From Pirellulales bacterium (GTDB lineage: Bacteria > Planctomycetota > Planctomycetia > Pirellulales > Pirellulaceae), in NCBI GenBank assembly GCA_046349795.1, contig JAXMBP010000023.1:4023-68022 (forward strand): a stretch of DNA of 64,000 bases, written 5' to 3'. Shown piece by piece: positions 4,929 through 24,644 of the stretch. Each line of letters starts with the position of its first letter. The stretch's first letter is position 1. The position numbers and the translations under genes were made by a program. A model generated the notes under the pieces. That model saw only the letters and a list, made by a program, of their open reading frames with translations. It was not told the DNA's origin and did not search any database.

Positions 4929-7900
4929 TTAGTCAAGCCCTACACTGGCATTGCCAATCGCGTCTCCATCCATGTTTGGGCCCGCAACCGAGGTGTTGAA
5001 AGCTGAACTGCCCCCAACCCATTGGCCAATCTGATCCAGACCTTCGTTGGAATAGGGCCGGAACTTTTGTTCGTGCCCAGTCGCCTCATCGTAAAGCAAC
5101 ATGACGTGATCGCCCAGTTTTGAAGCAGCCACCGAATCGACCAAGTTTGAAGAATCGTTCGCGCTCATTTGCATCAATAGCCGGATCTCGAACTCTCGAA
5201 CCGCATTGCGAGAAAGCCAGCGATTCACTGTCGAATAACTTTCGGCCCAGGCCAAAACATGAATGTTATGGCTCGGTCCATCGCGGAGAATCTCTTCCAA
5301 CATCTTGTCGGGAGTTGCACCGGAGGAGTTGAAGCTAAACTCGTCTTCACGCCGCAGAGATCGAAGTCGTCCAAGTTGTACGATATCTAGCAAGATACGA
5401 TCCATGTTTTCGCTCTCACTCGATATTCGTTGCTGCAAAACTTGATGAACCTGTGCCAGGCCTTCATCGATAGTTCGCAGATCGAACACAGATGTCTCGC
5501 AAGGAAGTTGTTGCCAGCGACTTGGTAATTGCAAAGCTCTTGCGTCAGTCGGCTTGGCTCCCTGCAAACTGATAACTCGGCACTGCTCGCCTTTGCTGAT
5601 GATCGCCTTTACGAATGAACTGGTAATCGAGTGCAATGTTGCCGCAGCCATCGCGTCTTCGCCTCCGACCAACAGCATGTTGCGTCCAGCTTGATTGATC
5701 AGTGGAAACACAACTGCGGGGCTAATTGAAACGCTCTCGCCACAGACACACCAAATGGCGTCGGGGTTCACTTCTTGTCGAGCCCGACTGATCGCCATAT
5801 CTGCCTGAGCTGGTTCCCAAGTTGCCGGACGGTTGCCATCAAAAACTACGGTCCGTCCCAAGCGATTCGTGGTAGCATCTCGGTTCTGGTATCCTGAAGG
5901 CAAGCTTTTAAACCAACTTACTTGCGTTGCTTTATCAAGCCAACCAATCTGCATTGGCTGATTACCTTCGATTCGCCCTCCAGCATCGTTGTAAACGGCT
6001 TGGCCTGGATACTTCAGTCGAGTTGCAGCAGGATTGTCGTCGGCGAAGATAACTTGTGCATCGGAAGGGTCGCATTGCAAAGCGATTCGCACCGCCATCT
6101 GTCCAAGCGTTGTTCGTGGCAGCGAATAAGAACCAACCAAAGTTTGGCTGCTCAAAATCGCATGCACTCCAAACGAACGACCCTGTCGAACAATTCGATC
6201 AAGAATTAAGCTTGCTGCCTGGCTCAACTTGTCGTCTTCGACAAACAGTTCTTGAAACTCGTCGACGACGACTAACATTCTTGGAATCGAGTTTTCAGGA
6301 TGAACAGCGTTCCAACTCGCAATATCTTGCACTCCTGCTTTTCGGAACATTTCCCCACGACGTTGCAAGCAGTCATCTACATACTCAAGAGCACTTAAGC
6401 CGAACTCACGATGTCTTTCAATACCAAGGATGTCAGCTTGGGGAATATTCGCGTCGCTATAAACTTGAAACTCTACCCTTTCTTGAAGTCTAGCAGAACC
6501 AGTCGCAGGTTCTCGGGCGAGTACTTCATCAAGGCGCTAGTAATCAGCGCGTGCAACAAGCTCGACTTACCAGAGCCTGTCTTCCCAGCGATGATCGCAT
6601 GTTGTGCTGTTCCTACGCCCAACTTCATGGAATGAACTCGATCAACTCCGCCTCATCCAATTGGAATTTCCAAGGAACGAGAACTGTCTCCCCGCCAGCG
6701 GGTGTCTTCGGTAGTGCCAACCATATTGCCAAGTGGAACTTCAACTCGACTTGCGGCCAATGCTCGGCGGCCAATCTCGCCCACAATGAAATCGGCTTGA
6801 GCATCTGAGGCCGTGACTTCGGGCTGAATCTTGACAGTGCCAATATGAGTCGAGTTGAGTTCGAACTGCCCACCCGTCGACAGCTTAACGTGCAGGCCTC
6901 GCCGGTCCACGATGTCTTGATGTTCGCGAACCATTTGCGCGCCCGGATCGATGATCAATATTGGAATGATTCCACATCGTGCTCCTGTATCGAGCAAACT
7001 TTGCAATGCCTTCCATGATTGCTCATCCATGCCGCTCGGGAAACTTGACCAAACCAGGATTCGGTACGGTTCAGCCAGCGATCCAGCATCGCGATTGTAC
7101 TCAGCTATATTGGCGTATTGATTGCGCAGCGATTGTTGTATGAAGTCCTCTGCGCTTGAAGCAAGATTCTGAAGTTGACGAGCGATATGTGGAGCTTGAG
7201 TCCAAACGCGATGACTCACCAGCGCTGGATCAAAATCGCTAAGGTGCATCAGCCAGCCAAAGTCGCGGCCAAGTCCTGGTGGATCAACGATGCACAGTTG
7301 TGTTTTGCCGCTGGGAAGCGTTGTTAAAGCTCGCACCAGTAGACTGCGTATCAGATCTTTGACGGCAGTGCTGGACGGATCGGCCTTGATCACAAGATAG
7401 CCATCCTGCAATGGCGAAAACAAAACGGGTGTTTGCATCGGCTCAAGAGTCAATCCACCTGCTGGATCAGCCTTGATACAATTGTTGACATCCAGCACTC
7501 CCAATGGCAAGTTTGGATTGCTCGCCAAGCTCGGCCATTCGACTTGCGGGTTTTCGAGTTGACTCCAGTTTGGAAAGTTCTGGATGCACCAACTGTTATT
7601 GCGCTGCACCAACTGAATTGCTTTTTGCGTAGAGACCTGCAGGCGATGAGCGCCCCCGCGAAGCAATTGTTCAATCTGAGCCTCAGTCTCCGCTTTCGCA
7701 GAAGATAACTTGCTACTTGCCAACTGGCGAGCATTCATGGCGACAATTTGATCTCGATCCAGGCGAGTCTCAAACTGTTGATTCGTTTCGGCTAGCCCAG
7801 ATGCCAACCTCGCGGCTGCTGACTCCTTCTCCTCTTGAGCCTTCGCGCGCAGGGCGGCTAGAGTCGAATCTGCCTTGGCTTTAATTTCATTGACCTGAGT

Positions 7901-8872
7901 TTCATGCCATGCAGTCAGACTGTCTAATCGTTCCCCTCGCTTCTGAGCTAGTCGTTGCAACTCTGCATCGTTTTCACTCACCGACAGTTCGTGGCTAGCC
8001 TTGAGGTATTTCCCAGCCAGCTCAAGCAAGCCTCGCAATTTGGGATACTCGGCGGCCGCTCCCTTCTTGAGCCAGGGGCGAACACCAAGCATGGCTGCAA
8101 GTACTACAAACGTAACAGCAGATGCACCGATGACCAATGAGATCATCAATTGTTGTCCCATCACAATAGGGATGCTAATGCCAGCTCCCAATACAACAAG
8201 GCAAACTAACCACCACCAAATGGATCCCGAGAGATTTGATAGCGGCAAATTCTCCAGTCGCTTTACATTCTGCTGAGCGGCAACGACCGCAACTTTAGAT
8301 TGTTCTAAGGCTTGCTGTGAATCTCGACTGTGATCCGGCTGTCGAGATTCAACTTTGTCCGGTACGTGCAAGCTGTGTTTGTCGAGAGCTGCTTGAGCAT
8401 CCATCTGCAGCTTGTCGATCATTCTTTTTACCGTTTCGAGCTGCAAACGGAACTGTTCTAACTTGTGATTCGTTGTCTCAACAGCGTGAGTATATCGTTT
8501 TTCGATCTCGCCCACTCGGTTCTTAGCTTCGTTGTTTACCTGCTCAGTATCGTTACGAGCGGTTGTGATTATTGCCCGCTCACGAGCTTTGGTTTCAAAA
8601 ATGGCTTTGAATGTTCTAACTTCAGAATCGTCCCAACAGCGGTTAACATCCTCATCCCAGTGTGTATTAACTTCATCGGCTTGGGTTTTGTTTTCCTCAT
8701 CTAACTTCAGCAAGTCTTGCTCGTGCTGAGCCTCCAAGTCCTTAATTTTCGCTCGCAGCTTTTCCAATTCGGCAGCCATAAGCTGTGAGCTGCTGCTCAT
8801 GCGAATCTGCAAACCAGCTACTAATTGCTCCAGCCTTCTGCGAGGCAGCAGTCGAGGGTCGGTTTGAATCAT
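4929..8872 (-). CDS. FtsK/SpoIIIE-family ATPase (EccC/EssC-like), ~1310 aa; interrupted by an in-frame TGA (6653-6655) and a 1-nt shift at a G-run (~6476-6478)
   Basis: ORF 6653-8872 carries coiled coil, 2 TM and a degenerate ATPase fold. It continues in frame past TGA into HAIIAGKTGSGKS (Walker A)...LLDFKKG, then after +1 G into VEFQVY... and ORF 4929-6368 (VVVDEFQELF Walker B, RQGRSFGVHAILSSQT). Confidence 0.88.
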
Positions 8873-12446: not shown

Positions 12447-12520
12447 TCCTAGGATAAGTTAAACAGCGAGCCCCTAATTGATTGGCTCTTCAGTTGCTTG
12501 GCGATCGTCAAACGGGTTGG

Positions 12521-12886
12521 TTAAGCTTTGGCTTCGTAGTTTACACGAATCACCGATGAAATGCCCCCGCGCGGTGTCCAGCGACTTTCCAGACTAGCCC
12601 GTCGAGGTTTGCAGGCAGCCACGAAGTCATCGAGTATGCGATTGGTGATGTTCTCGTAAAAGATCCCCTGATTGCGGAAGCTTTGTAAGTACAGCTTCAG
12701 ACTCTTTAGTTCCACACAGGTCTTGTCAGGCACATAGCGAAAAATTAGAGTTCCGAAGTCGGGCTGGCCAGTCTTAGGGCAGACCGAGGTGAATTCGGGG
12801 CAGTTGATCTCAATTTCGTAGTCGCGATCTGGAAAAGTGTTGTCAAATATTTCCAGTTGATCTTGAAATGGTGTACTCACCAGCAA
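12521..12886 (-). CDS. queF: NADPH-dependent 7-cyano-7-deazaguanine reductase (preQ1 synthase)
   Basis: PEFTSVCPKTGQPDF and the QueF motif VELKSLKLY. Confidence 0.95.
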   Translation of the reverse strand: MLVSTPFQDQLEIFDNTFPDRDYEIEINCPEFTSVCPKTGQPDFGTLIFRYVPDKTCVELKSLKLYLQSFRNQGIFYENITNRILDDFVAACKPRRASLESRWTPRGGISSVIRVNYEAKA

Positions 12887-13025
12887 AAATCTCCATGAAG
12901 AAAACGGGTCGATAATAACTCAAGTCTTTCTCGAGCATTTTAGTTAATCGGCAAGCGACTACCTCCCCCAACCGTGCCGTGGCAGTTTTTTCCACGCGCC
13001 TAAGCACCAATCGTTAAGTGCAAGT

Positions 13026-13762
13026 ATGCAAGTTGAAGGCACAATTCAAAAGGGGGTTAAGCTACGCATTTGCGAAATCTATGCCAGCTTGCAAGGTGAA
13101 GGACTGCTTACGGGCACGCCGAGCCTTTTTGTACGTACGAGCGGCTGCAATCTACGATGCTGGTTCTGCGATACGCCGTTTGCTTCCTGGAGACCCGAAG
13201 GGGAATTTGTGTCCGTTTCAGAAGCTGTAAAACGGATTGGGCAGGTCATCACATCCCAATCCGCACCTTCTGGGCAGTTGAAACACGTAGTTCTTACAGG
13301 CGGCGAACCGATGATTTGCGTATGTCGAACTCACCGGGAGCTATCCGCGAGGCTGGTTTACCTTAACCATCGAAACGGCTGGAACGATCTGGCGCGAGCT
13401 AGAATGCGATCTTTGGTCGATCAGTCCCAAATTGGCCAGTTCCGCACCCAAGCAGTCTGGTACGGCAAACTGACTCACGAGAGCGTCGCCAGCGTATGGA
13501 AGTGGTTCGGCGGATGATGAAGCAGAACTATCAGCTCAAATTCGTAGTCAACGATTTGGGAGATGCGGCTTCGGAATCTTGGACATCTTCAATCGCTCGG
13601 CGAATACCAATCATTCGAAGTATTGCTGATATCAAGGGACAACGGTAGAGAAACTGGATCAGCAGGCTCGATGGTTAGAACCGTGGTGCCAACAACACGG
13701 TTTCATCTTTTGCCCGCGGCAGCTTTTGTCTATTGGTTTTGGAAATCGCGCGCTTTACTTAG
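13026..13762 (+). CDS. queE: 7-carboxy-7-deazaguanine synthase (radical SAM); 3' half broken by indels
   Basis: [34 protein letters not shown]. Downstream frames give [24 protein letters not shown]. Probable stop at 13760-13762. Confidence 0.88.
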
Positions 13763-14117
13763 GTCGTACTGTTGGTTTCGCGACATGATGTAACGCTACA
13801 GGCAAAATTGGTTTTCTTGCTTGAAGAGATTTGTGAAAAATCTTTCAAGGCAATCATTCAGCTACTTTTTGCCTACGCGAGAATATCTCGGACCGAGCTT
13901 CATCATGGCTGCGACCCACTTACATCGAACCCATGAATCTTCTTGTGGTTAGGTGCACCAGCGAGGCGTTTACCTTGACCGTCAATTTGAGCCAATCACT
14001 GATGCCTGAATCACTCTAAACCTCAAGCAAATTCGAATATTGCCACCCTATTGACGTGTTTGGGCTATCTAAAATGACTATTTCAGTCAATTGATTCAGG
14101 TTTTCAGTTTTGTTGAC

Positions 14118-15670
14118 GTGCAAAAAGTATTTTTGATATACCAACCTACCTGTTCCTGCACTTCTTGAGGAAATCGTTAAACAAGCCAAACAAGGAGGTA
14201 TTGAACTTTTGCTCGCAAAAGATGACGCGAACAGAGGCGAAAACTACTACGCAAAAGTACGCCAAACAGATTAACTCTAACACATTACAAAGCTCTTTGT
14301 CGCGGCACTGCCAACGATAGTGAGTCTGCTGAACGCAAAGGCAACGGTTGGCTTCAAGAACTCGGAATGTGGATCGGAAACATGGTGATAGAAACACCTT
14401 AGTTTTGTACGAAGAAGGTGTGTCGTTTCCGGTTCCGGTCCCGCGTGCAGTGAAGATTGGAGTAAGCCCTCAACAAAGCAACGAGACCATAGCCGCATCT
14501 GTAGTCAGTGCAATATCCGAACGTTTGAATACGAAACGTTTGCCAGATCCAGAGTTTCGTGTTGTTGTAATTGAGCATTCTGCAGGCGCTCGAGGCATTG
14601 CTCAGAAAATCCAAGTGGAACTGAACCGACATTCAATCAATATTTCCGGCAATCAAAGGAAGATTCGTGCATCGCTACTAACTGACAGTATGCATGACAT
14701 ACAGATGGAGTTTCCGGGATTGGCTGGCATGCTCCGCCTCAAGGCAATTTTGAATCGAACGGACTTTGCTGTTTATGTCGTAGGTGAAGATTCAGGAAAA
14801 GCTAGCAGTAACGCCTTGGGGCCCTTCGCTCTAGGGATGTTGGATGGAAGGGCGGGTCTAACGGCTGATTATTTTCTCAAAGTTCGATCCCGCGACAACC
14901 TTACCGGCCCATCAAATTTTAGCGGTAGCGATTGGATAAATTACGACGAGTGCAGCCCCCAATTTTTGAATGAGCTGCTAACTCATATTCAATTCTACAT
15001 TCGTAATGGCAGTCGGCTCCGTTATGACAAGGTTATCCAATATATTCAAGGAGTACCAGCTCTACAGGGCTGGACTTTTGAGGACTTGACGGAATCTGGA
15101 TTAGATTGCGCACGTTATCCCAATGACCTTCTCCCACCATCGCTTGCTTTCTTTGCTGTCGTTGATAAGGATCGTACATCGCTGCGATTCACAAACGACT
15201 TATTCACTGTGTGGGATCGATTGATAATTTCCTTGAAAAAGATTGAAAGTCAAGTGAAAGCGCTCGTAAACGACTGGGGCAGAGCAGAGCGAGCAAGTCA
15301 AATGGCCGCGCAGTACGAACTGGAAACCGCATCCATAGACCTCAATCAATTCAAGGAAAAGCTGCTTAATTGGCGGACTAATTTGCCATCGTCGTCCCCT
15401 GCAATTTCCGGATTCAATGTGCTTAAGAAGCACTTTCTAAAAGAACTCAAATCTGTCAGTTCTCCCCAGATCGCCCAGCTTGACGACATTGCAATATTCG
15501 AGTCGACCTTGAAAGATATTTGGAAGCTCATTAGTCTTTTAGAGAGGGACCGAGCCGTTCTTGGCTCAGAGTTTTTTCGAGTACTCAGTCGTCCAGGGGT
15601 AGACTTAAGTTCGCCAAAGCAATTGCTGCCTACACTGCGAAAATCGTCAGAGGAGTTTTTTCATGGATGA
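14118..15670 (+). CDS. Putative tandem TIR (CAP12/Pycsar-type, PF10137-like) protein with helical C-terminus; 5' end broken by indels
   Basis: Fragments from GTG 14118 join as QKVFLIY / LLEEIVKQAKQGGIELLLAKDDANRGENYYAKVR / KLFVAAL / NGWLQELGMWIG / KHGDRNTLVLYEEGVSFP (TIR1). ORF 14348-15670 aa 70-200 reads FRVVVIEHS-AGARGIAQKIQ...TDFAVYVV...PFALGMLDGRAG...PSNFSGSDWINYD (TIR2). Recognised by eye. Confidence 0.6.
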
Positions 15671-16136
15671 AAGCGCTTCACCTTCAGCTAAATTCGATCA
15701 ATTCAGGTCATGGATTCGTAAGAACGAATTGCAATCCGCAAGGCACCGAAGAGATGCTTTTGATACCGATCTGCAAGTTCGAGAATTGGTAATTTGTTAC
15801 TACGCAGCGCAGCAACTAATTAACGCTGGAATTGAGGACGGCGAACAGTTGAAGAAGCCGATCGAAAGAGAATTCAAGTCTGACGTCCAGCGTTTTCGAA
15901 AACTGCGGGTCCGATGGCAAAAGCTAGGCAGCTTACTTCTGGATGGCGACCAACAAGTGTTTAGCCAACGACTTGAAGAATTGGCGAAGCTGTGGAATGT
16001 GAGTTCCGACGCGCATTCTAGTATGCTTAAGGAAATGCACAATCAATCATTCCTATTGACAGCATCATCGGGGCTAACCCCGTCCATAGTGACGGGTCAA
16101 TTTGGCAACCTATCATCAAAGTCATCTCAAGACTGA
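15663..16136 (+). CDS. Hypothetical helical protein (157 aa), 8-nt overlap with the upstream gene
   Basis: Open ORF; ATGGATGA start/stop overlap; no motif recognised. Confidence 0.7.
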   Translation: MDESASPSAKFDQFRSWIRKNELQSARHRRDAFDTDLQVRELVICYYAAQQLINAGIEDGEQLKKPIEREFKSDVQRFRKLRVRWQKLGSLLLDGDQQVFSQRLEELAKLWNVSSDAHSSMLKEMHNQSFLLTASSGLTPSIVTGQFGNLSSKSSQD

Positions 16137-16171
16137 GATCCGTGGATTTCGATTGAAATTAGGATAATAAG

Positions 16172-19100
16172 ATGGACCAAAGAACTGTTTCGTCCCTTTC
16201 ATTTGAAGGATACATCGCCCTAATCGCCTATATCAAAGACGACGAAAAGCCTTACGACATCGACTCGAAATCTTGGGTTGCGACACCAAACGATTTCTTG
16301 AAGCACTCGCAGGCATACTTGAGTAGAATCCAAGCCTTTGCCATATCTGCTGGTGTTCATTCAAGATTTGACCCTTGGCTATACAACTCCAAATGTTGGG
16401 TTGCATTTGGGCGTGCCGATCGAGTTGGGCTGGTGTTACTTGACGATTTCGACCCGATCTTCAAAATCACGTCAGAACTTTCAATTAGTATCGAACGGAT
16501 AGCAGTAGCGTTCTGTCCGAGAGTCAGCGATTTGCTTGACGAAGAAACTCGCAAGTATATTGTTCCGCTACATGATAAACTTGTGCCGACTGTCTCCGAT
16601 TCGGATCTACTCGCGATCGCACGATTCAAGTTAGGTCCGCTAGCGTCATTAGGACAAGGCTTGCTTGTTCAACAGTCGATACTTCGAGCTGTTGCCGCAC
16701 GCATACTCTCGGTAATCAATGGGCTCAAGGAAAAAAAACTCGCATGCCAGAATTGCAATATTCTTGACAAAGATCTTAGCCCTGAAAATCTTTGGTGCTC
16801 GCTCCTCAATCCACAGGGATTTGATGAGCTTGCGATTGTAATCGGCACTACCAATTACTCGGTCGCTGGAGCTATTATTGCCGGTATAAGATCTCTGACA
16901 CTGGCGCATGTTTACGCCGACGGAAACGAAAAGGACGCCCAAGATATACTTAAGACTCAGATTGTACCCTCTAGTTCGGTTATCTTCAGTCGTCAGCAAG
17001 CCTCGCAACAGGATCAGTCTGCGGGATACAACATTCCAGGCTATATCCAAGAGCTATTGGACGGTGGCAAACATCGGATTCGTTCGCCCGGGTTGCCAAG
17101 AAACCATCTCTTCAACTCTGGATTTTCCACACTCGCTGCGTCCGAAAATTGTATCAATAACATCGAAGACTCCCAAGTGGGCGGCTACATAAATGTTAGG
17201 GCTGAATTCGAAATTCATCCGGGTCATGAGGATGTAATTACCGAGACATTTCGAGGCCTGATTGGCGAAAAAAGTGTTGACCTCGGAAAGAGCTGCGACA
17301 TTGGTGTATTGGAAATGGGCGTGAAAGATCTTTCTTGCACGATATCTGACGAGGCTCGCAATGAGGTTCTTTGCCCTCGTGGGGTTCGAACTGATGAGTT
17401 TCTTAAGTCAGTAAGAGAGTATTACAATAGATTTCCGCAACTCGCAAACCTTCAGGGAGGCGAGAATGGGTTGCGATCAGTGACGTCGATTCTCTGTATT
17501 CCTTTTCCAAAGCTTGATGTTCATCGCGTGCCATGGGTCATATCCCCGTCCCCGTCGATCGACAATGTAGTTCATAATACTCGACAATATTTCGAGGGCC
17601 ATGCTCCCATGGTCGAGGCCCTAGCACATTTGAGGCAGAAAACTGAGTACGAATTTAACTTAAAGCAGTTGTCGGATTCGTTGGTTCGCGCGGGTGTGCC
17701 GCGAGCACTACGCATATCTATCCGGTATCTATACCAAGATTTTTTTCTAAACATTGCTAATGCTGGTTCGCTGGATGGTGTCCTGGACCTGTATGACGCA
17801 TTTTCAACGTTTTATTTCATACTGACGTCGGGGCTCAACAATCGTATGCGTCGGTATCCAGAAAAGGATTTTGAGACGATTAAAGACTTGCTCGACGCTT
17901 TCCAGAACGCTTTCGTTCACCGAGTCAGTGCACCGCATGGATTCCATGAATATCATGATGTCTCAATCGATTGGCGCGGTGGGATGAATCAACTTACAGA
18001 AGCAGCTGACTTCACGTTAAAGGGGGTTGAGGGGCTTCTGAAACATTGGGCGCGGGAAAATGGCAAGTTGGAGCAAATGGATTTTTACAAGCGTGTTGGG
18101 AGCGTAACCGCTGTCAAGCTCACTCCGTCAGCGAAATGTTCTCGGCCGCTATTCCGGGATATTGGCGATGAAAAAGAATGGCACAGTCTAAGCTACCTTC
18201 ACGTTAATGTAGGGCATATTTTTAACCCTTTTATGTATATTGCATACATACATGAAGGTGCGCATATGATTCGCTTGGTAAGCCCTTCCCGACACGACAG
18301 GCTTAATGCGCATGTAAAGGCACTGAGAAAGCAATCGGCTTGGTCGGGCGATCGGTCGGCACAAGTGCGTGCGAAGTTCCTTGCAGATCGTCACGACGAG
18401 CAGTTTGCCAATGCAATCGTGTATAGATTTCTCTTTCATCCAAATTGCGAACTTTTTTACAAGGTTTCAATGACGCAACTTGGCATGTTCTTGTCTCCGC
18501 TAGAACCGAAAGTTGATCGATCGCGTCGATTCTTAGAATATGCGATAAGAATATTCCTGGCTTCTGACCCCTGGAATTTCCCTCAAGATTGGAATGGGGG
18601 CAATATTGCAAAAAGCCGAATTAAAGATCGATTCAAGAAAACAACAAGAAATGGTATAAGGTGGTTTGCTGCAGCAGATGGAATCGTTGATGAGCCAAAG
18701 TTCCAAGAAATGATGGATGTGGAAATTGAAAAAGCGTTGGTTCAATCTGTTCCGTTTGCGATAGATGAATGGAAGCATGCGATGGATGTTTTCGATTGTT
18801 ATGCAAATTGGGAGAAGGCAATTCCGTGGTGTTGGGCGACTTCAAGGGGCGAGTCTGGTCCGATGCGAGAATCTGTGCTTTCTAAGATCAGAGCCACTAC
18901 CCGTGACATCATTAGAGAGTCGTTTAGGACTGGAGACGCAACAGTAGCAAACAAGATTCGCAGAGGCTTGAAAGAGCAGTTTCCAGAGCATTTCCAGTCA
19001 GGGGAGCCTGTATTAGATGAGTTCATTCTCGTGTGCGAGTTATTGCAATCATACTATGAGTTCTTATTTAATGATATAGATTGCGATAAGGAAGTGTTGG

Positions 19101-19345
19101 TCCCTCGCAATCGTGATTCTAGAAAAGTAGACTTCGATACGTGTAATGAGAAAAAGTGGAACTTGTTTCTTTTTGATCACGGAGCTTCAGGTCCGTTTTG
19201 TGTTGATGCTGAATCACGTAAGCGACATTTGAAGGCGCAGGTGGTTGTCCTGAAAAAGCTTTGGGATATGTCCACAACTATGAGAGGGCGGCGTCTTGGA
19301 CGTATGTCTGTTGTTAGAATTAATGACCACTCTCGCGCGAAATAG
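16172..19345 (+). CDS. Large hypothetical protein (1057 aa) with HExxH zinc-metallopeptidase-like motif
   Basis: Intact 3.2-kb ORF with AGGA upstream. AYIHEGAHMI at aa 691-700 (HEGAH nt 18251-18265) and downstream DEQFANAI. The N-terminal half has several G-x-x-D-like beta motifs. Confidence 0.75.
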   Translation: MDQRTVSSLSFEGYIALIAYIKDDEKPYDIDSKSWVATPNDFLKHSQAYLSRIQAFAISAGVHSRFDPWLYNSKCWVAFGRADRVGLVLLDDFDPIFKITSELSISIERIAVAFCPRVSDLLDEETRKYIVPLHDKLVPTVSDSDLLAIARFKLGPLASLGQGLLVQQSILRAVAARILSVINGLKEKKLACQNCNILDKDLSPENLWCSLLNPQGFDELAIVIGTTNYSVAGAIIAGIRSLTLAHVYADGNEKDAQDILKTQIVPSSSVIFSRQQASQQDQSAGYNIPGYIQELLDGGKHRIRSPGLPRNHLFNSGFSTLAASENCINNIEDSQVGGYINVRAEFEIHPGHEDVITETFRGLIGEKSVDLGKSCDIGVLEMGVKDLSCTISDEARNEVLCPRGVRTDEFLKSVREYYNRFPQLANLQGGENGLRSVTSILCIPFPKLDVHRVPWVISPSPSIDNVVHNTRQYFEGHAPMVEALAHLRQKTEYEFNLKQLSDSLVRAGVPRALRISIRYLYQDFFLNIANAGSLDGVLDLYDAFSTFYFILTSGLNNRMRRYPEKDFETIKDLLDAFQNAFVHRVSAPHGFHEYHDVSIDWRGGMNQLTEAADFTLKGVEGLLKHWARENGKLEQMDFYKRVGSVTAVKLTPSAKCSRPLFRDIGDEKEWHSLSYLHVNVGHIFNPFMYIAYIHEGAHMIRLVSPSRHDRLNAHVKALRKQSAWSGDRSAQVRAKFLADRHDEQFANAIVYRFLFHPNCELFYKVSMTQLGMFLSPLEPKVDRSRRFLEYAIRIFLASDPWNFPQDWNGGNIAKSRIKDRFKKTTRNGIRWFAAADGIVDEPKFQEMMDVEIEKALVQSVPFAIDEWKHAMDVFDCYANWEKAIPWCWATSRGESGPMRESVLSKIRATTRDIIRESFRTGDATVANKIRRGLKEQFPEHFQSGEPVLDEFILVCELLQSYYEFLFNDIDCDKEVLVPRNRDSRKVDFDTCNEKKWNLFLFDHGASGPFCVDAESRKRHLKAQVVVLKKLWDMSTTMRGRRLGRMSVVRINDHSRAK

Positions 19346-19422
19346 CCGACCGGGTTAACACGAGCAACTCGACTTTCGGCGAGAGAGTAGCAAGCTCGAC
19401 ATTCTGGATTAAGGTCAAAGCC

Positions 19423-20172
19423 TTACTGCTGCATCAAGGCAGCAACGACTGGAGAATCGTAGTTCAAGTTGGTCGACACTGCTTGAACATCGTCGTGATC
19501 TTCCAGAAGTTCCAACAGCTTCAGAACAGTTTTGGCAGTCTCCTCATCAACATCGACCGTCATTTGCGGAATGCGAGTCACCGAGGCCATATCCATCGCG
19601 ATTGATGCCGCTTCCAAAGCTGAAGAAACTTGCAAAAGATTCTCAGGAGCCGTAGTGATTTCGATCCGGTCATCTAAGACCTGAATATCCTCGGCGTCAT
19701 TCTCCAAAGCGATCTCCATAACGCGATCTTCGTTGTCCTTGCTGCCAACAATGATCAACCCTTTGCGGTCAAACATATAGCTGACGCAACCTGATCCACC
19801 CAGCGAACCGCCGTGGTTATCAAAGATCTTTCGAATCTCAGGGGCGGTTCTGTTGCGGTTGTCCGTCATGATGTCGCACATTACAGCAACACCAGCGGGA
19901 CCATAACCTTCGTACATGATTTCTTCAACATCACCACCATCAAGCTCTCCGGTGCCCTTCTTGATCGCGCGTTCAATGTTGTCTTTGGGGACGCTCATCG
20001 CCCGAGCGTCCTGAATAGCTGTTCGCAATCGAGCGTTATGATCCGGGTCACCACCACCTAACTTCGCTGCGACAATAATCGCTTTAGAGAGTTTTGACCA
20101 GAGCTTAGATCGCTTGCTATCTACGGCAGCCTTGCGGTGGCGAATATTAGCGGCGTGTGAATGTCCTGCCAT
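19423..20172 (-). CDS. yebC: YebC/PmpR family protein
   Basis: MAGHSH.ANIRHRK, YEGYGPAG, TDNRNRT, LEDHDDVQ. Confidence 0.95.
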   Translation of the reverse strand: MAGHSHAANIRHRKAAVDSKRSKLWSKLSKAIIVAAKLGGGDPDHNARLRTAIQDARAMSVPKDNIERAIKKGTGELDGGDVEEIMYEGYGPAGVAVMCDIMTDNRNRTAPEIRKIFDNHGGSLGGSGCVSYMFDRKGLIIVGSKDNEDRVMEIALENDAEDIQVLDDRIEITTAPENLLQVSSALEAASIAMDMASVTRIPQMTVDVDEETAKTVLKLLELLEDHDDVQAVSTNLNYDSPVVAALMQQ

Positions 20173-20257
20173 GATTGTTACAACGAAGAATGAACTATAT
20201 AAGATGGACTAACGGATTTCGAATGGAATACGTCTTTGGATACTACGCCTGAACAGC

Positions 20258-21235
20258 TTATTTTGGTTTACGCTTGGTCGGCGGAGTGCCACCTTTTGTC
20301 CCAGGCTTTTTTGGTGGAGCAGGCTTTTTGGCAACTGGCTTCTCTGTGGCTTTCTTAGCAGGCGGGGCAGCCTTTTTCACTGGAGCAGCAGGTTTTTTCG
20401 GCGGAGCGGCGGCTGGCTTCTTGGCTTCCGCTTTCGAGTCGGACTTCGCTTCAGCCTTTCCAGAATCTTTGGCTGGCTTGGCTGCTGGCTTCTCAGGAGC
20501 TTTTGCTGGAGCCTTAACAACAGGTGCTTCTTTGGGCTTTTCTTCCTTGGTCTTTTCTTCTTTCGCCTTTTCTTTCTTTTCAGGCGCTCCAGCTTCCTTC
20601 AAAATGGCTTTGGTATTCTTGCCTCCAGGAGCACCCACAACCAATAATCCAAATTGATGCAAGCATGAAGCAAACTCAGCCCCCTTCGACTTTGGAACCG
20701 TGCGTTCCAAGCTCGGAATCTGCCCTTTGACTGCCTCTGAATCGGACATGATTTCCGTGGCGAGCAGAATCTTTACGATGTTGCCGCTAACAGGAATTGC
20801 GTGACCACCGAAGGCATTCTGAGTTACGTAGTTTAAAACGAAGTTCGACATTCCGCCAAATTTCTCAAGTTCAGCAATTGCCTTGCCTTGATTCATCTTC
20901 GCCAGCTCTTCTAGGTCAAAGCTGTAGCGAGTTTCAAAGATCGACTGCAGATTCTTCTTCACACGAGTAGCAGCAGGTACTGCGTCTGGCAAATTTTGTA
21001 AGTGCTCAACCAACTCCGTTACCGTTGTAACGCGAACTTCATTCCAATCTACGAAACACTCTTGCAATCGGTGGAAGGCTTCGTCAGCAGCATCATACGG
21101 CGCGTCCTCAAGAACACTTGCATAGATCAAGTGCTCCAGGATGTTTCGATCTTTGGGAGCTAACACTGGGGTGAAGTGTTTGCTTACAACCTTTTGAAGC
21201 AGTTGGATGCGATCGCCGCGGTTTTTGCTACTCAT
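20258..21235 (-). CDS. Hypothetical protein: HhH-GPD/endonuclease III-like helical domain plus Lys/Ala/Pro-rich basic tail
   Basis: AFHRLQECFVDWNEVRV resembles the EndoIII-like N-lobe; C-terminal ~105 aa of KKPAAP-type low complexity. ATG 21235 is the likely start. Confidence 0.65.
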   Translation of the reverse strand: MSSKNRGDRIQLLQKVVSKHFTPVLAPKDRNILEHLIYASVLEDAPYDAADEAFHRLQECFVDWNEVRVTTVTELVEHLQNLPDAVPAATRVKKNLQSIFETRYSFDLEELAKMNQGKAIAELEKFGGMSNFVLNYVTQNAFGGHAIPVSGNIVKILLATEIMSDSEAVKGQIPSLERTVPKSKGAEFASCLHQFGLLVVGAPGGKNTKAILKEAGAPEKKEKAKEEKTKEEKPKEAPVVKAPAKAPEKPAAKPAKDSGKAEAKSDSKAEAKKPAAAPPKKPAAPVKKAAPPAKKATEKPVAKKPAPPKKPGTKGGTPPTKRKPK

Positions 21236-21337
21236 TTGTCGTCTAACTCTTGCTGTCTCGAATGAACTTCGATTTCTTCTGGTTTCTATTACTGACTCGA
21301 CACCATGCACGCTAGCTAACCCAGCACGCTAAGTTCT

Positions 21338-21757
21338 TCAGTCGTGATCTACTTTATCCGTGGTTGGTTCAGAATCTGATTGTTCAGCCTCGCGCCGAGC
21401 TGCCAACTCTTCGCGTTCGCGAGCAATATCCGCCAGGATTTGACCAACTTCCAAGCTCTTCTTGACGCCCAAATCAAGTTCAAAGCTAAGTCTTGGGGTG
21501 TAACGCGTTTCGATGCGTTTGGCGATTTTCGACTGTAAGAAGCCAGCCGAATTAGCCAAACCCCTTATACACAGGTTTTGTTTAACCTCGTCACCCATCA
21601 CGCTGATCAGTACTTTTGCACTGCGCATGTCGGGAGTTATCTCCACTCCTGTGACAGTTACATTCTTGACGCGAGGGTCGCGAATTTCGGTTAATATTGC
21701 CATGCTGACGACTTCACGAATCGCTTCAGCGGCTTTCAACATTCTACGGCTAGCCAT
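21338..21757 (-). CDS. rbfA: 30S ribosome-binding factor A
   Basis: MASRRMLKAAEAIREVVS...IRDPRV..VTVTGVEITPDMRSAKV...RYTPRLSF; lies after infB. The ORF-track start overlaps infB. Confidence 0.95.
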   Translation of the reverse strand: MASRRMLKAAEAIREVVSMAILTEIRDPRVKNVTVTGVEITPDMRSAKVLISVMGDEVKQNLCIRGLANSAGFLQSKIAKRIETRYTPRLSFELDLGVKKSLEVGQILADIAREREELAARREAEQSDSEPTTDKVDHD

Positions 21758-21782
21758 ATCGGTCTCCTTGGAAGTGCGAAGC

Positions 21783-24644
21783 TTAGTCCAGCTTTCGAGC
21801 CACTTCCTCAATGCGGTAGGCTTCCAAAATGTCGTCCGGCTTGAGGTCATTGAAGTTGGCCAACTTGATACCACACTCCATACCTCGAGGTACTTCCTTC
21901 ACGTCGTCGCGATGTCGCTTCAACGAATCCAGAGCATAGTCACCGATCGTTCGATTGTCTCGGTGTACTCGAATGCGGCAACCGCGTTCGATGGAACCCT
22001 GAGCCACCAAGCAACCTGCAACTGCACCAACCTTGCTGATGTTGAACACGGTCTTGACCAAAGCACGGCCGAGTTCGACCACGCGTTCTTCGGGCTTCAA
22101 GCGACCTTCGATAATCGCCTTGATGTCCTCCGCCAGTTTGTAGATGATGTCGTAACGTCGAATTTCGACGTTACGATCGTCTGCCAATCCTCTGGCTTGT
22201 TCATCAGGAATAACGTTGAAGCCAACGATCACGGCATGTGAAGCGCTAGCCAACGTAACGTCGGCTACAGTAATTCCACCAACGCTCTTTTGAAGGATTC
22301 GGATAAACACTTCCGGATGATCGATCTTGGACAGCTCTTTCTCGATCGCTTCCAAACTTCCGCGAGCATCCGCACGTACGATAAGATTGAGTTCGACCTT
22401 CTCCTCGGTCTTGCCAAGCTTGCCGGTTTGCAAAAGATTTTGGAAAGTCTCGAACGAAACTTTCGGCGATGTGCCCGAAAGCGATTGCGCTCGAGAAACA
22501 TTCTCTCGCGACTCAGCCAACTCGCGCGCCTGAGCAATATCATCAAGCACATAGAACCGATCGCCAGCAGCGGGAGCTTCATTCAAGCCGGTGATGTTGA
22601 TTGGCACCGATGGACCAGCCGACTTAAATTGAACATTGGTGTTCAACGTATCGTAAATCGCTTTCACGCGACCATAGCTGGAACCGCACAGGACGATATC
22701 GCCAACCTTGACTGTTCCGTTCTGGACAACGAATTTAGCGATAACACCCTTATCGGACTGTTGCTCGGATTCCAAACAGACGCCGATACCAGGGCGATTT
22801 GGATTGGCCTTGTAATCGTGCAGTTCAGCCACTGTCAGCAATGTCTCAAGCAGATCGTCCATGCCTTGACCGGTCGTGGCGCTTGTGCGAACTACTTCGA
22901 CGTCGCCGCCCCATTCGCTTGGCGTCAATCCATGTTCGGTCATCTGAGTCAAAATGCGATTCACATCGACACCAGGTAAGTCGATCTTATTCAGCGCCAC
23001 CACGATTGGAACCTCAGCCGCCTTAGCGTGACTGATAGCTTCTTCCGTTTGAGGCATGATGCCGTCATCAGCGGCAATTACCAGAATCGCGATATCTGTT
23101 ACGTTAGCACCACGAGCACGCATTTCGGTAAAGGCTTCGTGACCAGGCGTGTCGACGAAGGAAATCAGCTTGCCATCTTTTTCGACTTGATAGGCGCGGA
23201 TGTGCTGAGTAATCCCGCCCGCTTCGCCCTTCACAATGCGAGTACCGATCAGGTAGTCGAGCAATGACGTCTTTCCGTGGTCGACGTGGCCCAAGAAGGT
23301 CACGATTGGTGGACGTGACACTAGCGAATCTGGATCGTCCTCAGTTGTTTCGATCGCTTGAATCAAGTTCTCTTCGAGCGACTCAGGCTTGGTGAACTGT
23401 AGCTCTACGTTCAGCTCCACGGCCAACATCTCTGCCAATTCGGCATTGATATTGGCATTGATATTCAGCATCTGACCCATCTGCATCAGAGTTGCCAATA
23501 CGCGACCTGATGGAACGCCAGCGGCTTCCGAAAAACTTCGAACTGTACAAGGTAATTCCAACGAAACGTTCTCCTTACGCGGGGCAGCAGTATTGGTGCC
23601 TTTACGAACCAATTTCTTGGATCCTGCACGCTGCCGTCGATCATCATCTTCAGTTAAATCGATTTGACGCTTGCGGCGTTCGGCTCGAGCAGCCACAACT
23701 CCGGCAGTGCCCTTCTTGCCTGGTTTAGCTTCTTCTTCCTCTTCACCGGGACGGCCGTGCTTGCCCTTTCGGTCCGCCGCAGCCTTCGCAAATCCTTTAA
23801 GGCCGCCTTCGGGGGCTGGTCCTTTGGCTTTCGGATCCGTGGCAGAAGCGCCACCCTTGCGTCGATCTTCGCGGTCAGCCTTTTGTTGCGCTTCCATCTG
23901 CTCCAGCGGAGCCTTCATACCTTGCTTCTGACCGGTGATGTCATCTTTGGTGAAGCGAATTTCAGGCTTTTGTGGTGCTGGTTCGTTCGATTTAGGCGGC
24001 GGTACCGGAGCTGAACTCTTTGGAACGGACGCCAAATTGATGACCGGAGTTCGAGCTTGTGGCGGTCGCTTGCGATCACCGCGATCCTCGGTGGGACGGT
24101 CGGTCTTGGCCTGACGTCGACTGTCTAAGCTGCGAACGCGGCCAGCCGAAGACAGTGGTGAAACATAATCGTCTCGAGACATGGATCGCGACTGCTGTGG
24201 AGCTTTGGATGTTGCAGCCGTTTCAGTTTGATCAGCCTGCTTGGCAACTACGGACTCGGCCACTTCTGGCTCAGAAGCTTCGAGTACCGGGGTTGTTTCG
24301 ACTGGCTCGACAGGCGGTGCAGATGTTTCACTTGCTGGCGTAGATCGCGTCGGTGTGGAAGTCGACTTCAAATCGCGAGGTCGACCTGAAAGGCGATTTG
24401 AAAGCGGTCCCAGCGGAGATGTGCGAACTGGTGGCGCATCAACCGTATTGCCTTTTGGCTTTTCCGGCGCGGTGGGCTTGTTCTCTGGTCCAGCCAGATA
24501 CTTTTGAATGCGCGCAACCTCTTCATCTTCCAGGCTGGCAAGTGCCGAGCCCTTGTTCTGAATGCCAAGTTTCAGACAAAGATCAACGAGGTCTTTGCTG
24601 TCGATCGATAGCTCTTTAGCTAACGCGTAGATGCGTTTCGACAC
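21783..24644 (-). CDS. infB: Translation initiation factor IF-2
   Basis: RIYALAKEL N-domain; GHVDHGKTS, GGITQHI, DTPGHEAF, NKID. Confidence 0.98.
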   Translation of the reverse strand: MSKRIYALAKELSIDSKDLVDLCLKLGIQNKGSALASLEDEEVARIQKYLAGPENKPTAPEKPKGNTVDAPPVRTSPLGPLSNRLSGRPRDLKSTSTPTRSTPASETSAPPVEPVETTPVLEASEPEVAESVVAKQADQTETAATSKAPQQSRSMSRDDYVSPLSSAGRVRSLDSRRQAKTDRPTEDRGDRKRPPQARTPVINLASVPKSSAPVPPPKSNEPAPQKPEIRFTKDDITGQKQGMKAPLEQMEAQQKADREDRRKGGASATDPKAKGPAPEGGLKGFAKAAADRKGKHGRPGEEEEEAKPGKKGTAGVVAARAERRKRQIDLTEDDDRRQRAGSKKLVRKGTNTAAPRKENVSLELPCTVRSFSEAAGVPSGRVLATLMQMGQMLNINANINAELAEMLAVELNVELQFTKPESLEENLIQAIETTEDDPDSLVSRPPIVTFLGHVDHGKTSLLDYLIGTRIVKGEAGGITQHIRAYQVEKDGKLISFVDTPGHEAFTEMRARGANVTDIAILVIAADDGIMPQTEEAISHAKAAEVPIVVALNKIDLPGVDVNRILTQMTEHGLTPSEWGGDVEVVRTSATTGQGMDDLLETLLTVAELHDYKANPNRPGIGVCLESEQQSDKGVIAKFVVQNGTVKVGDIVLCGSSYGRVKAIYDTLNTNVQFKSAGPSVPINITGLNEAPAAGDRFYVLDDIAQARELAESRENVSRAQSLSGTSPKVSFETFQNLLQTGKLGKTEEKVELNLIVRADARGSLEAIEKELSKIDHPEVFIRILQKSVGGITVADVTLASASHAVIVGFNVIPDEQARGLADDRNVEIRRYDIIYKLAEDIKAIIEGRLKPEERVVELGRALVKTVFNISKVGAVAGCLVAQGSIERGCRIRVHRDNRTIGDYALDSLKRHRDDVKEVPRGMECGIKLANFNDLKPDDILEAYRIEEVARKLD

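Follow-up and report, generated by a model that had tools for sequence, protein, structure and literature searches.

The closest described systems to the locus considered here are those with TIR effectors of the CAP12/Pycsar type (PF10137) or of the Thoeris type, and those in which an immune output is gated by a protease. In the CalpL-CalpT-CalpS system a type III CRISPR Lon protease cleaves an anti-sigma factor, and Craspase and the zinc protease Lit (Peptidase U49) also belong among the protease-gated immune outputs. We know of no large zincin-like partner in CBASS, Pycsar or Thoeris. A constant core combined with a varying effector position is described for the ternary systems (Kaur et al. 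2020, PMC7159879) and for the APE/ParA-linked immune system, whose swappable effectors are given as caspase, TIR and KAP-like NTPase (bioRxiv 10.64898/2026.10.19.760177). The subject of the present work is a small locus (5.2 kb, three genes; positions 14118–19345) in a 64,000-nucleotide (nt) stretch of contig JAXMBP010000023.1, hereafter the window, from the Pirellulales bacterium assembly GCA_046349795.1. The genes are called A, B and C (genes 1, 2 and 3 in the first-pass annotation of this DNA, which had proposed an undescribed defence operon of a tandem-TIR protein, a small coupled protein and a large HExxH protein), and A-B-C is our own label for the arrangement. The observations of that annotation hold up for the most part, and its interpretation is supported in part. 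The main new result is a large family, so far unannotated, that gene C defines and in which a three-gene layout is conserved.

The locus resembles these systems in part. Gene A has the same order of landmarks as the CAP12/Pycsar-type and Thoeris TIR proteins, with a glutamate of its probable first TIR-like module, as read through the frameshifts, at the catalytic column, and it too lies in an accessory, foreign-looking operon; it differs in having no Pfam-level match and in consisting of tandem copies, one of which has an alanine at that column. Neither Pfam nor PADLOC revealed a CD-NTase, cyclase, SAVED, STING or cNMP-binding domain, as in CBASS and Pycsar, in the three proteins or their neighbours, or a ThsA (SIR2 or Macro/SLOG), as in Thoeris, in genes B and C or the flanks, and the earlier statement that the operon corresponds to no named TIR system agrees with the searches of PADLOC, Pfam, NCBIfam and PHROGs. 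With CalpL-CalpT-CalpS, Craspase and Lit the likeness would be confined to the logic, in which a protease linked to a sensor stands beside a small partner and an output protein; one A-B-C family member (L066) has a sigma-70 region 4 output, as might be compared with CalpL-CalpT-CalpS in particular. The differences from these three are that sequence and fold membership are not shared, that A-B-C has no CRISPR, SAVED or Lon domain, that its putative sensor is a chlorite-dismutase-like ferredoxin-fold module and that cleavage is only proposed here. The APE/ParA-linked and ternary systems have the constant core and varying effector position in common with A-B-C, and a TCAD9 gene lies near one A-B-C member (L003), but A-B-C has no ParA or STAND NTPase core, and a core protein with triple ferredoxin-like and HExxH parts is not named in the passages searched of bioRxiv 10.64898/2026.10.19.760177 or PMC7159879.

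Gene C (P0003) has no match in Pfam, NCBIfam, PHROGs or PADLOC (PADLOC-DB v2.0, with models to 2023) at E ≤ 1. Its relatives P0008 and P0010 fall into no PADLOC family at E ≤ 0.01, no member of the family matches Pfam or NCBIfam, and a literature search retrieved no description of the family. A word-index search gave two relatives only; a profile search of 1.84 billion representatives gave 464 at E ≤ 1e-3, 265 of them at E ≤ 1e-30, and the family members are nearly all 1000–1150 amino acids (aa) long and aligned end to end. Near-invariant residues occur in both halves of the protein, D83, D91, N228, H312, G351, H352 and D386 in the N-terminal half and D539, D542, R584, D600, R602, H694, E695, H698, E743, R1016 and K1028 in the C-terminal half. 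The gluzincin-like motif noted for gene C in the first-pass annotation holds up across the family: the HExxH sequence is HEGAH (18251–18265), E743 (18398–18400) follows 45 residues downstream, and H694, E695, H698 and E743 are at least 90% conserved in alignments of 47, 68 and 112 sequences. The pattern of MEROPS clan MA(E), HExxH with a downstream glutamate as third zinc ligand, is therefore present in the family.

Structure prediction divides gene C into two parts. In an AlphaFold2 model of the whole protein built from 68 sequences (predicted local distance difference test, pLDDT, 85.4; predicted template-modelling score, pTM, 0.92) the ferredoxin-like units lie within residues ~1–450/470, and the first two appear to be packed as in chlorite dismutase, HemQ or DyP; the model has the two ferredoxin-like domains forming an alpha+beta barrel that is the hallmark of the chlorite dismutase/HemQ/DyP (CDE) superfamily. 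Superposition of the N-terminal half on 6xub_A with VIA-align (matching part ~10–330) gave a Z of 12.0 and a root-mean-square deviation (rmsd) of 3.9 Å over 200 residues, and taken together 6xub_A, 1t0t_V and 3dtz_A gave Z values of 12.0, 11.8 and 11.7 over 200–210 residues (rmsd 3.9–4.5 Å), while Foldseek matched this half to chlorite dismutase/DyP with E 3e-3 and TMt 0.43–0.54. The superposition partners were coproheme decarboxylase, chlorite dismutase and DyP, together with AsnC/Lrp ligand-binding domains in the ESM Atlas, where the template-modelling score (TM) by row was 0.60–0.74. Identity to the CDE proteins and the AsnC/Lrp RAM domains is 8–10% for this shared fold, and gene C differs from the CDE superfamily in that the module is threefold repeated and fused to a 590-aa HExxH domain. 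The predicted likeness is one of fold; H312 and H352 would be the candidate heme-ligand histidines, as candidates only. By sequence, the gene C family profile found nothing meaningful in the PDB.

The context survey covered 15 distinct gene C loci. In 12 of these C is immediately preceded, and often overlapped, by a small gene (117–204 aa), before which comes a variable gene, giving the order A-B-C with tight spacing; an operon of a variable, a small and a large gene is in this way that of most family members. The A position is occupied by proteins of 232–269 aa with no domain in L051, L053, L055 and L068, by membrane proteins in L062 and L063, by a 339-aa protein with a C-terminal Sigma70_r4 domain (E 9e-10) in L066, by a 452-aa protein with an N-terminal Trypsin_2 domain (E 9e-9) and then a 250-aa tail in genome G325, and by proteins of 499 and 529 aa with no recognised content in L064 and L067. 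(A nucleotide-cyclase-like N-terminus in the L064 protein, guessed by eye, received no support on testing.) Gene A of the window (~295 aa of TIR-like sequence and a ~225-aa tail) fits the pattern of a minimal A protein with an added domain, its tail being about as long as the stand-alone minimal A proteins elsewhere. Directly upstream of A in L051 and L053/L054 there is a KAP NTPase gene that matches the PADLOC PDC-S20, QatA and PifA models (E 1e-24 to 7e-18). Some A-B-C loci in this respect begin with a counterpart of the KAP NTPase defence genes (PifA, QatA of QatABCD, PDC-S20), but the window operon has none, the link is drawn from the close spacing seen in two diverged loci, and KAP genes often act alone. 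An AAA_14/DUF4143 gene lies near C in L068.

Three loci, L068 among them, have neighbours of the kind met in defence islands, which we count in favour of a conflict role. The trypsin-type copy of G325 (L060) adjoins three such genes (G325:C5, 390–5643), one for a 482-aa TIR_2 protein, which overlaps that of an 869-aa DUF4062-AAA protein, and a convergent one for a 403-aa subtilase; these probably make up an independent TIR/STAND-like unit of defence within a defence island. In L003, an exception to the usual layout, genes for proteins of 314 and 80 aa and the TCAD9 protein are upstream of a distant C homologue (P0006), and a HATPase_c_3 (MORC-like) gene and an excisionase-type helix-turn-helix gene are nearby, the region possibly being on a mobile or defence island; P0006 is also downstream of a sigma-54 activator with histidine kinases (6780–8690, 15207–21178).

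Our best explanation, which we regard as evenly poised, is that the locus is a single horizontally acquired operon belonging to this unannotated modular A-B-C family and a member of a conflict system. A defence or conflict role is mildly favoured because of the patchy distribution, the foreign composition, the fast divergence of the partners and the TIR-like, serine-protease and KAP-linked outputs; what the data show is the arrangement of the genes, the foreign composition, the size, conservation, fold and motif of the C family and the variability of A, while the TIR identity (moderately well) and any catalysis, contacts between the proteins, substrates of the protease and role in defence are inferred. 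Gene C would be the constant, cytoplasmic part of 1050–1150 aa, with its ferredoxin-like triple module as the likely sensor of a ligand or signal and its HExxH...E domain as a likely metalloprotease; gene B would be a small, fast-evolving protein, and gene A the variable part, made up of a tail of ~230–270 aa to which a swappable output or effector domain may be added. On sensing of a trigger by the N-terminal module, the metalloprotease of gene C would cut B, or the linker of A, and cleavage would release or activate the TIR-like effector, which would then degrade NAD+ or make a nucleotide signal so as to arrest the infected cell. That gene C gates the TIR-like effector by proteolysis in this way is a tentative proposal, and the model of proteolytic activation in the first-pass annotation is likewise purely conjectural. 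It is likewise possible but doubtful that A-B-C is a new and widespread modular immune class in which C controls B by proteolysis and, through B, a swappable effector A, and we are no more confident that the effector in such a class would be a TIR-like NADase in the present locus and, in others, a serine protease, a sigma factor, a membrane protein or a KAP NTPase. Were all this true, at least 460 sequence clusters that Pfam, NCBIfam and PADLOC leave unannotated would supply the central protein of a new modular defence system, and its sensor fold would be one with no previous link to immunity. There would also be a further case of protease-gated effector release, and the pair of an active and a dead TIR-like domain would be a natural one, useful for studying how TIR assemblies are regulated.

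A number of observations weigh against this explanation. The closest relative of gene C (39% identity, L002) stands alone with no A or B, and one G325 copy (L061) has a single 654-aa partner. (A CN-hydrolase-like C-terminus considered for this partner was discarded, as the match had only E 0.36 and was to the glutaminase part of NAD synthetase.) From locus to locus, blastp and single-sequence hhalign detected no similarity among the A tails or among the B proteins (the gene A tail gave hhalign P ≥ 0.12 with the other A proteins), and because no sequence similarity links them across loci the equivalence of A and of B is one of position and size alone. Among the members found, none has a Pfam-level TIR in its variable gene. 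Gene A has no homologues among 5.8 billion proteins, and gene B, which also has no match in Pfam, PADLOC, NCBIfam or PHROGs, is an orphan for which no homologues were found. Homologues of genes A and B, whose co-occurrence with gene C had been named as a check in the first-pass annotation, were thus not seen beside it elsewhere, and the exact trio has been seen once. The reading is weakest in its TIR assignment and in that genes A and B are unique.

The alternative to be considered first is that A-B-C is a regulated-proteolysis signalling system serving the physiology of its own host (stress, envelope or metabolite) rather than immunity, in which C would sense a metabolite or heme, cleave an anti-factor B and so free an output A. 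The Sigma70 region 4 in the L066 A protein fits regulation as well as it fits immunity, the N-terminal fold of gene C matches heme and small-molecule binders and the AsnC/Lrp ligand domains, several C loci are found among ordinary metabolic genes, and the phage and plasmid collections searched yielded no gene C homologue. We nevertheless rate this alternative as unlikely in view of the distribution, the composition and the partners. None of 24 genomes of the same genus and 16 of the same order yielded a match to gene C, and the family occurs in one of the 400 other genomes of the phylum sampled (G325 only); the composition of the locus is foreign, A and B diverge extremely fast, and conflict systems typically have domains like the TIR-like and trypsin-like ones of the A proteins and NTPases like the KAP NTPase next to them. 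That gene C was not found in those congeners also agrees with an accessory status of the locus.

The TIR assignment of gene A is the next point at issue. Gene A has no match in Pfam (E ≤ 1), NCBIfam or PHROGs, but the PADLOC TIR effector model PDLC00731 matches its residues 21–212 with E 6.5e-4. For a closer comparison 22 bona fide PF10137 domains, taken from genomes of this phylum, were aligned to make a custom profile, and module 1 was used as a three-frame read-through with X at each break and the path picked by eye. With hhalign, module 1 aligned to this profile with P 3.8e-4 (27 columns) and module 2 with P 2e-4 (69 columns), the hhalign probability for the two being 36–47%, and the gene A tail gave P 0.22. 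The scores of modules 1 and 2 were 26.4 and 28.7 compared with maxima of 19.6 and 22.4 in 40 composition-matched shuffles of each, and 11 other A proteins gave P ≥ 0.03 to PF10137, the gene A modules being at least 30-fold better. ESM Atlas features connect gene A to TIR_2 and PF10137 clusters (0.89; a lead only), and 8 of the 10 nearest structure rows to the low-confidence Atlas model of gene A (pLDDT 0.52) were PF10137 or TIR_2 (TM 0.27–0.44). A phmmer search of the PDB with the N-terminal part of gene A found nothing. In module 2 the sequence FALG aligns with the lElG motif, placing an alanine (GCT 14828–14830) at the column of the catalytic glutamate in contig-confirmed sequence, and this module is probably catalytically dead. 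As judged from sequence comparison, a TIR-like identity of gene A is likely. What had been read as two TIR motif sets in gene A is to that extent upheld by the PADLOC and hhalign matches; it found no Pfam support. Module 1 is frameshifted, and module 2 has the alanine.

On the other side, gene A does not reach the PF10137 gathering score of 24.7 bits, the custom PF10137 hidden Markov model gave 7.3 bits in total against the read-through gene A with HMMER, and six-frame scans of the source genome with PF10137 and PDLC00731 gave no match at the locus. The glutamate of module 1 that aligns with the catalytic glutamate of lElG (GAA 14358–14360) lies in a frameshifted stretch without contig coverage. 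The TIR assignment is accordingly weakly to moderately supported and below every curated threshold. These same facts form the case for gene A being no TIR protein at all, or a decaying remnant, and for the locus being three accessory genes without any effector–sensor relation: all the TIR evidence is sub-threshold, module 1 needs five frame corrections, modules 1 and 2 have no detectable similarity to each other and A and B are orphans. We consider this quite improbable since four different methods converge on the same TIR family, in queE the frameshift zone can be shown to be an artefact of assembly, the frames of 440, 157 and 1057 aa are intact and coupled and the A-B-C order recurs widely.

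The frameshift zone is a patch of about 1.1 kb (13300–14400) with dense indel errors, roughly one per 70–100 nt. Short-read contigs from public runs are identical to the window at 12484–13179, from 14529 onward and at the gene C/yebC junction, where an exact contig (19236–19590) runs from the 3′ part of gene C into yebC. From 13.3 to 14.13 kb the contigs depart from the window by many indels and substitutions (the contig at 13930–14133, for instance, by 6 letters and 6 gap positions). In the window about four frameshifts interrupt queE, and a tblastn alignment to the queE of a relative switches frames, but when the contig indels and substitutions are applied a single queE frame is obtained that has 63% identity to residues 1–234 of a congener's queE. 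Because independent short-read contigs restore one frame, the queE breaks are an assembly artefact and not gene decay, and the frameshifts at 13.3–14.4 kb are mostly assembly errors. Gene A appears to be affected at its 5′ end: upstream of 14348 its frame runs back to the GTG at 14118 only via about five frame changes, so that 14118–14400 is not one open reading frame (ORF) as had been supposed, and the N-terminal 'TIR' copy requires about five frameshifts. These breaks, too, are probably assembly errors because they lie in the same low-quality zone that was proven artefactual in queE. In the comparison with reads across 14.0–14.4 kb, recommended at the outset, the contig that extends to 14133 differs from the window, and 14134–14528 is without a contig. 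The apparent pseudogenes at 13.3–14.4 kb are mostly assembly errors, and pseudogene calls in this genome need a read check.

The HExxH part of gene C was also modelled alone (pLDDT 88.2). The model consists of helices and a small sheet that immediately precedes the HExxH helix, and H694, E695, H698 and E743 are predicted to lie on consecutive helices after this sheet. The best shape neighbours in the Atlas were unnamed stand-alone HEXXH motif-containing proteins of 390–420 aa (TM 0.59–0.62); the next, including all of the family-bearing ones, were the MA-clan peptidases M48, M61, M56 and MA_2 (TM 0.30–0.43), and gene C has faint feature neighbours in clusters of the Lit-like U49 and M48 kinds (score 0.78). 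Solved structures speak less well for a protease, with a best Z of 6.5 in the PDB (LTA4 hydrolase 5.4, tricorn F3 5.0, BlaR1 4.5) and no convincing peptidase match among them. That the HExxH domain is some other metal-dependent enzyme (peptide-modifying or hydroxylase-type), with A and B serving it as substrates or scaffolds, or as immunity partners, in a small pathway of biosynthesis or modification, is improbable, for although the best shape neighbours are not curated peptidases, Pfam gives no peptidase match and the N-terminal fold is that of heme enzymes, HExxH with a downstream glutamate is the classic gluzincin pattern, every family-bearing shape neighbour is an MA-clan peptidase, the NCBIfam HExxH-modification families do not match gene C, the B proteins are long and unconserved for precursor peptides and no recurrent radical-SAM or transporter genes were seen beside C in the loci surveyed. 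A complex prediction with gene B, the gene A tail and the C-terminal half of gene C scored 0.11 (mark 0.32), which is evidence neither way.

The features of the locus are listed in the table below. The source genome is metagenome-assembled (6.46 Mb in 104 contigs, 73% complete), and a public-run search showed that wastewater metagenome runs contain the DNA of the window.

Coordinates of the genes, gene parts and borders of the A-B-C locus (positions in the window)
Feature	Coordinates	Strand	Remarks
queE (7-carboxy-7-deazaguanine synthase)	13026..13793	+	left border; Radical_SAM match on first 163 aa
Spacer, non-coding, 5′ of gene A	13794..14117		inside low-quality zone
Gene A	14348 (TTG)–15670	+	440 aa, intact ORF
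Gene A module 1, probable N-terminal TIR-like (CAP12/PCTIR-type)	14118..14440	+	read through ~5 frameshifts
Gene A module 2, TIR-like	14552..14950	+	intact frame
Gene A tail, ~225–240 aa	14951..15670	+	no detectable relatives
Gene B	15663–16136	+	157 aa, intact ORF
Gene C	16172–19345	+	1057 aa, intact ORF
Gene C N-terminal half	16172..17580	+	residues 1–470; three ferredoxin-like beta-alpha-beta-beta-alpha-beta units (predicted)
Gene C C-terminal half	17579..19345	+	residues 470–1057; helical HExxH domain, zincin-like (predicted)
yebC/TACO1-family gene	19423..20172	-	right border, convergent with gene C; Pfam

The ORF coordinates agree with the tight layout first described, in which the three co-directional genes have an 8-nt overlap (A/B) and a 35-nt gap (B/C), the overlap suggesting translational coupling. 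The low G+C content (GC) that had been gauged from a small sample was confirmed over the whole locus, where it is 45.9% compared with 50.7% in the rest of the window and makes this the lowest 5.2-kb stretch of the window; GC at third codon positions (GC3) is 44–46% in genes A, B and C compared with 53–56% in queF, yebC, infB and other neighbouring housekeeping genes. The uniform low GC and the lack of a match in the same-genus and same-order genomes agree with horizontal co-acquisition, as had been suggested. On the debit side of this history, a repeat scan found no att-like repeats around the island, only short ones at chance level. Promoter and terminator matches at the locus were no more than expected by chance.

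Both borders are housekeeping genes, as first identified, with queF and queE to the left and yebC, a gene for a 350-aa conserved hypothetical protein, rbfA and infB to the right (Pfam); the Pfam-scanned flanking genes are housekeeping genes, no scan having been aimed at tRNA or integrase genes. The picture of an insertion between adjacent queE and yebC proved imprecise. The blocks infB-rbfA-hyp350-yebC and TIM-barrel-queF-queE are each kept in five congeners, far apart, and beyond yebC and queE the congeners differ even from one another in their flanks; because queE and yebC are not adjacent in these five, the island lies at a synteny break and cannot be called a clean insertion. The 350-aa protein (20258–21310, - strand) between yebC and rbfA belongs to no Pfam family, and in all five congeners examined it is kept in position with 63–71% identity. 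The rbfA ORF as listed (21338–21874, - strand) overlaps the 3′ end of infB (21783–24644, - strand) by about 90 nt, and its GTG start is probably too far upstream because the Pfam RBFA match begins at residue 44.

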